NCBI RefSeq assembly: GCF_013315695.1
Contig: NZ_CP054353.1
Origin: Escherichia coli
GTDB lineage: Bacteria; Pseudomonadota; Gammaproteobacteria; Enterobacterales; Enterobacteriaceae
Length of the DNA stretch: 64,000 nucleotides
Reading direction: 5' to 3' (one strand)
Shown here: positions 27,728-30,325 of the stretch, piece by piece
How the letters are laid out: each line of letters begins with the position of its first letter
Position numbering within the stretch: position 1 is the stretch's first letter
Program-made: the position numbers and the translations under genes
The notes under the pieces: generated by a model
Databases searched by the model: none
What the model was told of the DNA's origin: nothing
The model's input: the letters and a program-made list of their open reading frames with translations, nothing else

Positions 27728-27968
27728 TTATGTTGGCGTTTTCTATTCAGTATAGAAGTGGGAGCGACTGGGCGAGATGCGGAAGTTCTGGAATATTTCT
27801 TTTTTTTGGATGGTGACTGAAGCAAATTGGCTACATTTTGCAATGTGACCAGTTGCGTCATAGCTGGCTGGTGGCGAAGAATTTTGACGATTGCGGCATG
27901 CAGAAAAAAACGGGTTCAGCTTCAGTTGATCAAATGGGGAGTGAGAAGTCCGAAACAGGATTTACTGT

Positions 27969-27976
27969 ATAAATAA
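27969..27976. repeat. Target-site duplication (left copy) ATAAATAA
   Basis: 8-bp direct repeat immediately outside the left terminal inverted repeat; identical copy at 29862-29869. Confidence 0.65.
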
Positions 27977-28004
27977 GGGTCTTCCCCGATCATGGTGGGA
28001 AGAC

Positions 28005-29225
28005 TCAGTACGCCATATTCAGTTTCCCATAGTGGAACATAACTCCCAGTTTAAAGCGTTCCCGGTTTCGGTATCCCCTGGCCTTTATCCTCAGCAGTCT
28101 GATCTTGCTGTTCAGCGCCTCCGCATTTCCATTCGAGACGCGATGACGCATTGCATTCAGTATTCCGTATAACCGTTTTTTAATGGTTTTCGCTGCGTTT
28201 TTCATCATCGGCACATCACATTCAGACGCCAGCGATATCCACTGCAACCAGTCATTCCTGCGTTCTGTGCTCCAGGGGCGATCCCAGATATTTTTTGCCA
28301 GCTCTTTCAGTGTCCAGCACTGGCTTGTCTGTTGCATCTGTTCCCGCAACCACATCAGCTTTTCCTGCCGGGACTCAGTCATCCATTTGTCGCTGTACTG
28401 CCACAGGAAGCGGGTACCTTTGGCCTGACGACGACTTTCAACAGGGAGGTGCGGATGTTCATTCTGGCGGGTTTTATCAACCACTTCGCCCAGTTGCTTC
28501 GCCACATGGAAGCGATCGAAGGCGATTTTCTCGACCGCATTGGGTAAATGGATACGCGCTGCTCTTATATAGCCCGCATTCATGTCCATCGACAGTGTTT
28601 TGATGGCCAACAACTGACTGTCAGTAAGCGAACGGAGATAGCTGGCAAGACTCTCTGTGCCACGATCATCGGTTAATGCCAGTGCCCGCCCGTCGCGATC
28701 AGATACCACGGTTATATACCTATGCCCTTTTTTAAAGGCGACTTCGTCTACATTCATATGACGCACTGATAAAGGCTTTTTAATCCGCGACAGGCCTCGC
28801 TTAACCGCGCGGGTCATGATGCCGTCAACGGCATTCCAGCTAAGTTTAAGTTGTTTTCTGACCGCATCAACGGTGCTGATTTTAAGCCATGAGAGCACGA
28901 ACGATTCGAACAGCAGAGTGTACCGACTGCCGGAACCTGCCCACGGTACAGGCAGAGTCTGGCAGCCATGCTCCGGGCACATAACGCGGGGAACATCGGC
29001 TTCTACTAATGTCATGAACTGGCAGGTATCAAGGTGGCGCCATTTACGATGTCGGTGATCGTGAACAGAACAGGATTTCCTGCAGGTCGGACAGGTTAAC
29101 TGAGTATTTTCAGCAATTCCGACTGTAACAGTAACGGAACCTGCATTTTCATCGAGGGTAAGGGATTTAACCTGCCATGGTGCAGTCAGGTTAAGGATAT
29201 GGGCATAGAGGGATTTTTCGTCCAT
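28005..29225 (-). CDS. ISL3-family transposase
   Basis: 406 aa. N-terminal Cys/His-rich zinc-finger-like region (CPTCRKSCSVHDHRHRKWRHLD...CPEHGC) followed by a DDE-type core, typical of IS204/IS1001/IS1096/IS1165 transposases. Confidence 0.85.
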   Translation of the reverse strand: MDEKSLYAHILNLTAPWQVKSLTLDENAGSVTVTVGIAENTQLTCPTCRKSCSVHDHRHRKWRHLDTCQFMTLVEADVPRVMCPEHGCQTLPVPWAGSGSRYTLLFESFVLSWLKISTVDAVRKQLKLSWNAVDGIMTRAVKRGLSRIKKPLSVRHMNVDEVAFKKGHRYITVVSDRDGRALALTDDRGTESLASYLRSLTDSQLLAIKTLSMDMNAGYIRAARIHLPNAVEKIAFDRFHVAKQLGEVVDKTRQNEHPHLPVESRRQAKGTRFLWQYSDKWMTESRQEKLMWLREQMQQTSQCWTLKELAKNIWDRPWSTERRNDWLQWISLASECDVPMMKNAAKTIKKRLYGILNAMRHRVSNGNAEALNSKIRLLRIKARGYRNRERFKLGVMFHYGKLNMAY

Positions 29226-29243
29226 ATAATTTCATTCTGAAGC

Positions 29244-29762
29244 TTACTTTAAACTGATATTATTATTTTTTGCCCACTTTCTTAATCTTCCATTAGCGTT
29301 GGCGTAAGGCGAAGATGTGTTAAATGAGATCATTCTCCCCATCGTCCATTTTGTGTACCATGGTCTTCCATACAAAATATCATCGGTACGATCATTAATA
29401 AGGTTCACAATCTCATTTTTTACAGTCTGAAGTTCAGCTACTAACAACTCATAACTTAACTCACTGTAATCTGAGTAAAATTTTTGAGCAAGAAGGCCAA
29501 GCTGATTCCATTTATAGCCAGTTTCCGGAAAATCGACAGGCAGACCTTTAGCATCAGAAGCGATCCACTTTACAACAAGAGCATTCCATCCAAGCAGATA
29601 CGAAACGAGATCACGAACACTCATCTCCGTTCCTTTGGCGTGTCCGTCCATTGATTTATCTGAAGTAATTTCTGGTGGGATTGTGTTGAGGTAACTAATT
29701 AATTTACTAAAATTTTTATCAATAGCTAAAAGCAGTTCAGCTTTTGTTTGCGGCACACTCAT
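29244..29762 (-). CDS. ClbS-like / DUF1706 family protein (passenger gene inside the IS)
   Basis: 172-aa ORF with features recalled for the colibactin self-resistance protein ClbS family (GHAKGT, VSYLLGW, YGRPWYTKWTMGRMISFNTSSPY...NISLK C-terminus). Located between the transposase 5' end and the right IR. Confidence 0.6.
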   Translation of the reverse strand: MSVPQTKAELLLAIDKNFSKLISYLNTIPPEITSDKSMDGHAKGTEMSVRDLVSYLLGWNALVVKWIASDAKGLPVDFPETGYKWNQLGLLAQKFYSDYSELSYELLVAELQTVKNEIVNLINDRTDDILYGRPWYTKWTMGRMISFNTSSPYANANGRLRKWAKNNNISLK

Positions 29763-29861
29763 AAGAATTCCCTCTCATGTAAAAAGAGACACCATAAAGG
29801 TACTGTGTGGTGTTTGAAAATCACTCAATTATGTACCACCCACCACAACAGGGGAAGACCC

Positions 29862-29869
29862 ATAAATAA
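29862..29869. repeat. Target-site duplication (right copy) ATAAATAA
   Basis: Identical to 27969-27976, immediately outside the right IR. Confidence 0.65.
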
Positions 29870-29884
29870 ACAGTTATTTTGTTG

Positions 29885-29950
29885 AGGAAGGGTAAGATAA
29901 CTGCGGGTGCCTGAAGCTTTCCGGTTTCAGGTTTACTTTGAGGTCTGGAA
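29885..29950 (-). ncRNA. sokE: Putative sokE antisense RNA of the hokE type I toxin-antitoxin locus (position approximate)
   Basis: Inferred from hok/sok locus architecture (antisense to the mok start/hok leader). Boundaries not determined from sequence. Confidence 0.25.
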
Positions 29951-30204
29951 AGATGAAGCCCCAGGAGATATTTCTATCAACCCTGGGGCTGCCACTCCAA
30001 ACCCGAACAATTTGGATGGTAGTCCCTTCTTCGCATGGAGGCAATATAAACATGCTGACGAAATATGCCCTTGTGGCAGTCATAGTGCTGTGTTTAACGG
30101 TGCTGGGATTTACGCTTCTGGTCGGAGACTCGCTGTGTGAGTTTACGGTGAAGGAACGTAATATTGAGTTTAAGGCTGTTCTCGCTTACGAACCGAAGAA
30201 GTAG
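29938..30204 (+). CDS. mokE: mokE, overlapping reading frame that mediates hokE translation
   Basis: 88-codon frame that runs through and ends with hokE, as in hok/mok loci. True start uncertain. Confidence 0.4.
30052..30204 (+). CDS. hokE: HokE type I toxin (Hok/Gef family)
   Basis: 50 aa, [50 protein letters not shown]. Followed by hairpin TGCGGGGAGTAATCCCCGCA (30207-30227). Confidence 0.85.
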
Positions 30205-30325
30205 CCGCTGTGCGGGGAGTAATCCCCGCATATCCGGTTGTCAGGTCAGGATGGTAAGGCACCTGCTTTACACTTTCGCCCGCGGTCAGCAATGGCTGCG
30301 GGCGAATCGTACCAGATGTTGTCAA

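Follow-up and report, generated by a model that had tools for sequence, protein, structure and literature searches.

We describe an insertion sequence (IS) of the ISL3 family that lies just upstream of the toxin gene hokE in Escherichia coli, and a target preference that it appears to share with its closest relatives. The element was found in a 64,000-nucleotide stretch of contig NZ_CP054353.1 (NCBI RefSeq assembly GCF_013315695.1), referred to below as the window. Read directly from the window sequence, it measures 1,885 bp (27977-29861), and both of its open reading frames (ORFs), one for a transposase and one for a passenger protein, lie on the minus strand. Comparison with other genomes makes it very probable that this is an intact, and probably active, copy of ISEc53/ISEc55 seated in the LexA operator of hokE, and that the clade to which it belongs selects LexA operators as targets, favoring those that are most consensus-like. 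The features of the locus are collected in Table 1.

Table 1. Features of the insertion locus, in window coordinates
Feature	Positions	Strand	Basis or details
Left half of the split hokE LexA operator (TA-CTGT)	27963..27968	.	Contiguous with ATAAATAA-ACAG in the empty allele L001 and in K-12
Left 8-bp target-site duplication, ATAAATAA, equal to the operator spacer	27969..27976	.	Read directly; empty-site comparison
Right inverted repeat (IRR), transposase-3' end: GGGTCTTCCCCGATCATGGTGGG	27977..27999	+	The same 23-mer ends ISKox3, ISCfr12 and relatives
ISL3-family DDE transposase gene, 406 aa	28005..29225	-	Pfam and NCBIfam
18-bp spacer, cargo stop codon to transposase ATG	29226..29243	-	No terminator predicted
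Passenger gene, ClbS/DfsB-family (DUF1706) four-helix-bundle protein, 172 aa	29244..29762	-	Pfam; identity to PDB 5COF; PGAP name
Passenger-gene leader, part of the captured cassette	29763..29838	-	~60 bp homologous to the region upstream of the Citrobacter farmeri clbS-like gene
Left inverted repeat (IRL), passenger end: GGGTCTTCCCCTGTTGTGGTGGG on the minus strand	29839..29861	-	Read directly; alignment
Right 8-bp target-site duplication, ATAAATAA	29862..29869	.	Read directly; empty-site comparison
Right half of the split hokE LexA operator (ACAG-TT)	29870..29875	.	Read directly
Conserved hok/sok RNA unit (Rfam RF01794)	29905..30060	+	83.5 bits, E=1.9e-18, model positions 1-157
hokE toxin gene, 50 aa, SOS gene whose operator is hit	30052..30204	+	ORF; annotated hokE in identical records
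GCGGGGAGTAATCCCCGC hairpin after hokE, site of IS186B in K-12 and of IS421 in L002; intact here	30212..30229	.	

The element and its empty site at hokE

The preliminary description of this stretch had credited the element with perfect 11-bp terminal repeats. The 11-mer GGGTCTTCCCC does stand at 27977-27987 on the plus strand, with its reverse complement at 29851-29861, but the true terminal inverted repeats are 23 bp long and imperfect, matching at 19 of 23 positions, the first 11 of them without a break (27977-27999 against 29839-29861; GGGTCTTCCCC-GA-T-CA-TGGTGGG versus GGGTCTTCCCC-TG-T-TG-TGGTGGG). Their length falls within the ~15-40 bp that characterizes terminal repeats of the ISL3 family. 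A copy of ATAAATAA abuts each end of the element on the outside. Within the window, no match to GGGTCTTCCCC with one mismatch allowed was found beyond the two element ends, and the pair of 11-mers taken by itself is weakly unusual (at least two matches at one mismatch occurred in 12 of 100 shuffles). The element is significant because of its whole architecture, its empty site and the 100% identical copies found elsewhere, not because of the 11-mer pair. Read in its own orientation, it consists of the IRL, a short captured leader, the clbS-like cargo gene, an 18-bp spacer, the transposase gene and the IRR. The 406-aa protein matches three ISL3 domains of Pfam (DDE_Tnp_ISL3, 1.7e-58; HTH_Tnp_ISL3, 1.1e-11; Zn_ribbon_ISL3, 9.6e-10) and passes the equivalog cutoff of the NCBIfam model transpos_ISL3 (NF033550; 328 bits against a cutoff of 180), in agreement with its earlier assignment as an ISL3-type transposase.

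By its sequence, the element is one that has already been catalogued, as ISEc53-family by PGAP and as ISEc55 in the literature on sequence type (ST) 131, and neither the IS nor its cargo nor its epidemiology is new. The fimB insertion of ST131 has been named fimB::ISEc55 (PMC4584265), with a size of 1,895 bp in the literature versus 1,885 bp between the inverted repeats here. ISEc53 and ISEc55, including fimB::ISEc55 of ST131 clade C, are the same element as that of the window, with 1,885 bp, 0-1 mismatches and the same ends, transposase and ClbS/DfsB cargo; between the ST131 fimB copy and the window copy there are 0 mismatches. At least 80% of the element was present in 656 of 5,426 complete E. 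coli genomes (~12%), including Nissle 1917, IAI39, CE10 and the ST131 fimB insertion. The same search returned 711 plasmid-borne places of the element, and the full 1,885 bp is 100% identical in many genomes. The window copy is no different in sequence from the published ISEc53/ISEc55 copies, and what sets it apart is its site in the hokE operator, which this element occupies in only ~5 of the 5,426 genomes. A preprint of November 2025 called a clbS-like gene beside a single ISL3 family transposase a transposon, and located this 'clbS-like transposon' on pUTI89-like plasmids and on the chromosomes of ST131 C1/C2, ST69 and ST95 (bioRxiv 10.1101/2025.11.17.686825). A study of ST95 listed both genes of the element as pUTI89/chromosome-associated.

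The empty site was reconstructed by joining the two flanks with one ATAAATAA, and was searched for in the same set of genomes. An uninterrupted hokE site is present in 5,253 of the 5,426. Isolate AF14 (locus L001) matches the reconstruction at 294 of 294 bases with one ATAAATAA, and K-12 likewise has a single ATAAATAA at its hokE operator (CACTGTATAAATAAACAGCT). The 8-bp duplication proposed earlier, present at both ends of the element and single in these empty alleles, is therefore genuine. The filled hokE allele was found 100% identical in two other genomes and at 98.8-99.9% in three more, five in all. Judged from these comparisons, the insertion took place recently when set against the divergence of its own lineage. 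The portrayal of the element as recent, intact and possibly active is reasonable, because many different sites hold near-identical copies and laboratory transposition is documented for the sister element, ISKox3 (PMC12057282). E. coli ATCC 43896 (L003 1975-4761, NZ_CP024278.1) also has a filled site, with ISEc53 in the operator of the second of two tandem hokE copies; the first tandem copy keeps an uninterrupted ATAAATAA (L003 2022).

Outside the duplication the two flanks are mutually inverted, with ACTGT on the left and ACAGT on the right. The reconstructed target, TACTGT-ATAAATAA-ACAGTT, reads TACTGTATAAATAAACAGTT, and the sequence at the same place in K-12 is CACTGTATAAATAAACAGCT. The SOS-box consensus is TACTG(TA)5CAGTA, and hokE is among the genes with a known SOS box (PMC6590174); its operator has a heterology index (HI) of 4.9 (PMC11228462). 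The split operator lies ~32-45 bp upstream of the start of the hok/sok unit (29905), in hokE promoter territory, and this neighboring unit was the sole match in the Rfam scan. On this sequence evidence, the insertion target is the hokE LexA operator, CTGT-ATAAATAA-ACAG. The 8-bp duplication coincides with the operator spacer, so that the cuts fall at the inner edges of both half-sites, and CTGT and ACAG now stand 1.9 kb apart. The junctions read CTGT-N8-GGGT and ACCC-N8-ACAG, with no hybrid box. A rebuilt operator was looked for at both IS junctions and rejected, as neither regenerates a second half-site. A LexA box inside the IS, which would have pointed to an SOS-regulated transposase, was likewise rejected; the one candidate, in the transposase gene, is poor and has a GC-rich spacer.

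It had also been stated that K-12 carries IS186 at this same locus, and suggested that the ybdK-entD interval is a recurrent IS target. The first statement is incorrect. IS186B of K-12 (L050 3508-4852) lies in the GGGG-AGTAAT-CCCC hairpin that directly follows hokE, at a distance of 365 bp from the operator, with the gene between the two. The second holds insofar as the interval is repeatedly hit, IS186 and IS421 at hok loci likewise being recurrent in it, but there are two unrelated landing pads, one per IS family. IS186 and IS421 differ from the ISL3 element in that they belong to the IS4 family and target the hairpin, and they can coexist with it, as in E. coli AR_0114 (L002), where ISKox3 is found at the operator and IS421 at the hairpin.

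Target sites across the clade

Two relatives of ISEc53, namely ISKox3 (an ISL3 element common on IncX3 blaNDM plasmids) and ISCfr12, have the same 23-bp IRR and a near-identical IRL, a transposase gene that is ~85-88% identical, an 8-bp duplication and the same LexA-operator targets, including hokE. Unlike ISEc53, they are 1,316 bp long and encode the transposase only, ISEc53 having in addition a ~570-bp cassette made up of the leader and the clbS-like gene. Copies were gathered from contigs encoding exactly the cargo protein, the ISEc53 transposase or the ISKox3 transposase. Other copies came from a terminal-23-mer scan of one genome per species, from a plasmid match to ISCfr12 and from a metagenome scan.

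Among 28 unique targets with a clean 8-bp duplication (ISEc53, ISKox3, ISCfr12 and relatives), 22 read exactly CTGT-N8-ACAG with the duplication as N8. Four others have one mismatch, bringing the number within one mismatch to 26 of 28. Of the remaining two, one is the symE operator (CTGA...CCAG), a documented site, and the other bears no relation to the motif. The flanking tetramers are nearly invariant, both on one side (C 20/21, T 21/21, G 21/21, T 19/21) and on the other (A 19/21, C 21/21, A 21/21, G 20/21). Taken by column, the target consensus is TACTGTATATATATACAGT (T-A-C-T-G-T-A-T-A-T-A-T-A-T-A-C-A-G-T), which matches the SOS-box consensus (PMC6590174). Independent insertions are thus concentrated in one motif and in exact register, as expected of a motif 'hunter'. 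The 358 kb of analyzed DNA, in which SOS loci are overrepresented, contain the motif 9 times, and the window has no second occurrence; the binomial probability of such a concentration of targets is ~2e-96.

The occupied sites lie at hokE, dinD (beside yicC), sbmC (beside dacD, in three species contexts), umuDC, tisB, dinI and symE, all of which are listed with known SOS boxes (PMC6590174). Further sites were found at plasmid imp-like and dinI-umuD-like operons and at two prophage sites, and the hosts include E. coli and Klebsiella. With respect to the SOS gene, the IS was found pointing either way, as would be expected if the target is palindromic. ISCfr12 lies in the perfect box CTGT-ATATATAT-ACAG.

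The 8-bp AT-rich duplication had been taken in the preliminary description as the usual footprint of an ISL3 element. If such an ordinary preference for AT-rich DNA operated here, the ybdK-entD interval would be a generic IS sink and the likeness of its target to a LexA box coincidental. The 89% A+T content of the duplications would fit this, as would the presence of another IS in the same interval in K-12 and the AT-rich duplications that ISKox3 leaves in capsule genes (see below). Such an explanation is effectively refuted by the near-invariant tetramers outside the duplication and the probability attached to them, by the SOS genes that neighbor the insertions in E. coli, Klebsiella, plasmids and prophages, and by the use of a different, GC-rich hairpin by IS186, and we regard it as highly improbable. 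The duplication itself stands, but its AT-richness is not the reason for the choice of site. The site appears to be recurrent because the hokE LexA operator is targeted by an IS clade with base precision, not because it is AT-rich.

At least 13 genomes have ISKox3 at exactly the hokE position of the window element, oriented alike and flanked by the same ATAAATAA duplication (e.g., L002 1582-2913, AR_0114, NZ_CP021732.1); several of these genomes also carry IS421 or IS150 in the interval. Along with the identical end sequences and the ~86% identical transposase genes of the two elements, this sharing would be accommodated by one ancestral insertion, in which ISEc53 replaced a resident ISKox3 by homologous recombination, or the reverse. 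Metagenome loci of the form CTGT-N8a/IS/N8b-ACAG are compatible with recombination between copies, although such hybrids may be assembly chimeras. We find a replacement at hokE improbable. Both elements also use the dinD and sbmC sites, so that the same pairing recurs there, and more than 25 other operators have been hit independently. The flanks of the ISKox3 allele are ~90% identical to the window over the interval, indicating different lineages, and an empty allele with identical flanks exists for the lineage of the window. The hybrid loci are numerous in the metagenomes, with a half-site on each side and unlike spacers (N8a ≠ N8b; e.g., tataCTGT TTTTATAT / ATATAAAT ACAGttac), a pattern that would arise either from chimeric assembly or from inversions and deletions, by recombination, between copies seated in different operators.

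The occupied operators tend to be those of low HI. In K-12 these values are 1.8 for tisB, 2.1 for umuDC, 2.2 for dinD, 2.8 for sbmC, 4.8 for dinI, 4.9 for hokE and 7.9 for symE. The median is 2.8 for the 7 occupied operators versus 8.2 for the 20 not seen occupied (one-sided Mann-Whitney p=0.0015), some of the occupied sites being in other species, and the four lowest-HI operators are all occupied. HI values were taken from PMC11228462, and gene identities from Pfam neighbors.

Single-end junctions in other genera (Symbiopectobacterium, Yersinia, Rahnella, Izhakiella and others) have CTGT in 13 of 23 cases, most of the rest being near variants, and in an independent metagenome sample CTGT stands at -12..-9 in 49 of 62 unique junctions. 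Many contigs of Candidatus Symbiopectobacterium (L026-L038) and Candidatus Sodalis endolongispinus (L039) end in the terminal 23-mer of the IS, a pattern in the sequence that indicates a large expansion of a related element. The junctions in these insect symbionts are mostly CTGT or near variants, with several that are neither. Inside E. coli prophages, ISEc53 was found in perfect CTGT-N8-ACAG in a Mu-like prophage, between mor and a holin gene (L061), and in a lambdoid prophage, near the Q antiterminator (L063). These copies suggest that LexA-controlled prophage genes may offer extra landing pads.

Specificity and mode of target recognition

The preference for operators is strong, not absolute. 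A number of observations count against our main reading. At the fimB site of ST131 (L004, L007, L056, L058 and L062, compared with K-12, L051 643-670), the target reads AAAG-TGTATATATAT-CCAT and resembles one half-site plus a (TA)n spacer; its junctions, TGTATATA/IS/ATATATAT, show no clean 8-bp duplication and a 5-bp ATATA overlap relative to K-12. An E. coli copy near pspF/pspA (L060) is bounded by a clean 8-bp duplication, GCTTATCG, but its site is GC-rich and unlike a LexA box (TCCG...GCGT); it is a true off-target event. Under laboratory selection, ISKox3 inserts de novo into Klebsiella capsule genes with the AT-rich duplications ATTTGTAA, ATACATAT and TTATAATT, for which the letters of the duplication are given without flanks (PMC12057282). 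All of the sites that we have compared are survivors in assembled genomes, in which tolerated intergenic positions inflate the share of operators; selection for tolerated positions cannot create a base-exact register. The sequence CTGT-(AT-rich 8)-ACAG is almost always a LexA operator, and sequence read-out and LexA-guided capture predict the same sites. Finally, a promoter and terminator scan of 27850-30100 returned no consensus sigma-70 promoter upstream of the cargo gene on the minus strand; the single plus-strand promoter match in this interval was below the shuffle expectation. Partial motifs also occur, at a site in the interior of an IS3-type element (CTGG...ACAG) and at one in L044 (ATGT...ACAG).

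We propose that the DDE transposase cut the two strands 8 bp apart, at the inner edge of each half-site (TACTGT/ATAAATAA/ACAGTT), which would have duplicated the 8-bp operator spacer and separated the half-sites. Most likely, recognition of the CTGT-N8-ACAG palindrome and of its flexible (TA)n center is by the transposase itself and not via LexA. The other possibility, to which we give a clearly smaller but still appreciable likelihood, is LexA-guided capture, in which the transposase would be drawn to LexA-bound or bent DNA, or to LexA itself, and would cut symmetrically around the dimer axis. Such capture would account for the exact symmetry of the register around the dyad of the operator, the spacer being what is duplicated, and for the occupation of the operators with the lowest HI, which are the tightest LexA binders. 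It would also account for the use of the symE operator, a documented LexA site although it is off at both fourth positions (CTGA...CCAG). The low-HI trend, however, is equally expected if the sequence preferred by the transposase is the consensus, and the transposase has ISL3 Zn-ribbon, HTH and DDE domains only, with no recognizable LexA-interaction module. Direct read-out is preferred because partial-motif sites are used where LexA is unlikely to bind (fimB, the IS3-type element and L044), and because LexA, when bound, should sit over both half-sites and so occlude the cut sites at their inner edges.

Because neither junction regenerates the second half-site, insertion should abolish LexA control of the promoter left on the gene, or else detach that promoter. 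At hokE, the sequence from -43 onward stays adjacent to the gene after insertion.

Insertion elements that home to a motif are well known. IS1397 and ISKpn1 target the palindromes of repetitive extragenic palindrome (REP) and bacterial interspersed mosaic element (BIME) sequences, IS621 and other IS110-type elements target REP sequences, and IS4321 and IS5075 target the inverted repeats of the Tn21 family, while Tn5053/Tn402 are 'res hunters' and Tn7 uses attTn7. The ISEc53 clade similarly uses a short, conserved, multi-copy and mostly intergenic palindrome that is also present on conjugative plasmids and would offer safe, transmissible landing pads. Set against these elements, it has an ISL3-family DDE transposase and makes an 8-bp duplication, and its motif, unlike theirs, is the operator of a global repressor, LexA, so that insertion would also disconnect a stress-response gene from its regulator.

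In open-access full text (ISfinder notes and subscription papers being outside the search), no report was found of LexA-operator homing by ISL3-family or ISKox3 elements. Nor did open-access full text yield an earlier example of an IS that homes to the operator of a transcription factor. The published descriptions of ISEc53/ISEc55 that were consulted are silent on how targets are chosen, and the preprint on the clbS-like transposon (bioRxiv 10.1101/2025.11.17.686825) makes no mention of LexA. The target rule is apparently undescribed, although with real uncertainty. We lean, from the sequences compared here, towards the view that ISEc53, ISKox3, ISCfr12 and their Enterobacterales relatives form a clade of 'SOS-box hunters', whose transposase would home to the strongest LexA operators and which would represent a previously undescribed target class.

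Passenger genes and wider significance

The 172-aa passenger protein has a full-length match to Pfam DUF1706 (3.3e-54; residues 1-165 of the 166-position model) and is 100% identical to the protein of crystal structure PDB 5COF. ClbS of the pks island (PDB 6ANR) aligns with it over the full length (E=1.1e-55) and is roughly half identical. Both are members of the same DUF1706 four-helix-bundle family, and the tyrosine of the SYL(I/L)GW motif (SYLxGW) is conserved between them, VSYLLGW against VSYLIGW at the same positions. This tyrosine, Tyr55 of ClbS, was reportedly found to be catalytic by Tripathi and coworkers in 2017. ClbS is the colibactin self-resistance cyclopropane hydrolase of the pks island, whereas the window protein is IS-carried and lies outside that island. 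All ClbS-like proteins tested by Silpe et al., including the homologues of E. albertii (WP_000115842) and Dickeya, protected against colibactin (PMC8907063). Because the cargo is a ClbS-type protein, it probably protects its host from a colibactin-type genotoxin. The cargo and transposase genes are probably co-transcribed, since the 18-bp gap between them contains no predicted terminator.

The preliminary description had treated the 172-aa ORF as a passenger of the IS, and the comparison of copies bears this out. In all of the 1,885-bp copies that were compared, which come from more than 15 unrelated places on chromosomes, plasmids and prophages and differ by 0-1 mismatches along their full length, the ORF is enclosed by the inverted repeats. 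When aligned, ISEc53 and ISKox3 have their first 25 bp and the transposase gene (~86% identical) in common, and in ISEc53 the ~570-bp cassette stands between these two parts. A homologue in Citrobacter farmeri (87% identical; L053/L055 3001-3519) is a stand-alone, native chromosomal gene with no transposase nearby. Homology between this locus and the IS extends from ~60 bp before the start codon to ~18 bp beyond the stop codon, and these limits therefore delimit the captured segment. One might still suppose that the ORF is a locus-specific neighbor, or a decayed remnant, and not functional cargo, given that no consensus promoter was detected upstream of it and that it has no NCBIfam match. Its position in every copy refutes the former, and its full length, its identity to the crystallized protein, its complete DUF1706 match and the IS-free Citrobacter locus that bounds the cassette all speak against the supposition, which we hold to have almost no chance of being correct.

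A 91%-identical gene of Edwardsiella tarda (L052 2900-3700) was considered as a second IS-free homologue and rejected, as it belongs to a decayed ISEc53-like copy in which the IS end is preceded by CTGT plus 8 bp and the transposase gene has internal deletions. A LexA box that would explain capture at the native Citrobacter gene was also sought, and only a half-convincing site with one mismatch was found, ~130 bp upstream. In the cargo leader, an inverted repeat, ACACCA-N13-TGGTGT (29789-29813, minus strand), is conserved between the IS and the native Citrobacter gene. As an RNA structure this repeat was rejected, its fold being no better than those of shuffled sequences (z=-0.04); it may be a protein-binding site or nothing.

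Other genes have been found in elements of this kind. A metagenome contig (Ga0160439_1000554; L114 1289-3049) carries a 1,761-bp ISKox3-like element that encodes a fosfomycin-resistance glutathione transferase of the FosA family (129 aa; NCBIfam NF000496, scoring 194.8 bits where the cutoff is 180). The fosA-type gene lies downstream of the transposase gene and within the inverted repeats, and the element is inserted in CTGT-ATTGATAT-TCAG. In Rahnella ecdela (L047 3813-5496; also L025 and L049), a 1,684-bp variant encodes a 116-aa cargo protein with two SH3 domains (Pfam SH3_2, 3e-08 and 4e-06). Its gene occupies the same slot as the clbS-like gene and ends 18 bp before the transposase ATG; like the ClbS-like protein, the SH3 protein had no NCBIfam match. 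Three or more different genes have thus entered the cargo slot. Two of them are stress-relevant, the colibactin-resistance-like ClbS homologue and the FosA-type gene for resistance to the antibiotic fosfomycin.

If operator homing is true, these elements would have landing pads that are both safe and conserved, whether on chromosomes, on conjugative plasmids or in prophages, and the landing places of new copies would be predictable. Homing would explain the frequent reports of ISKox3 next to umuD on resistance plasmids and the position of the clbS-like transposon beside dinI-like genes on pUTI89-like plasmids. Genes for mutagenesis (umuDC), toxins and persistence (tisB, hokE and symE) and gyrase protection (sbmC), as well as dinI, would be uncoupled from LexA in clinically dominant lineages. 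Each new copy would amount to a small rewiring of the SOS network, affecting error-prone polymerase V, persistence toxins, the gyrase protector or plasmid imp/umu operons. The elements are very common in ST131, ST69, ST95 and IncX3 NDM plasmids, where the effect of the IS on mutability, persistence and tolerance to quinolones or genotoxins is testable. The clade would also provide a natural DDE transposase with a defined 16-bp palindromic target, which could be studied for targeted insertion.

Two altered copies were seen among metagenome contigs. In one (L092 1980-5992), an ISEc53-like element is split by an IS21-type istA/istB element, for a total of 4,013 bp. The other (L156 248-2119) is a derivative of 1,872 bp, in which a 13-bp deletion frameshifts the transposase gene.

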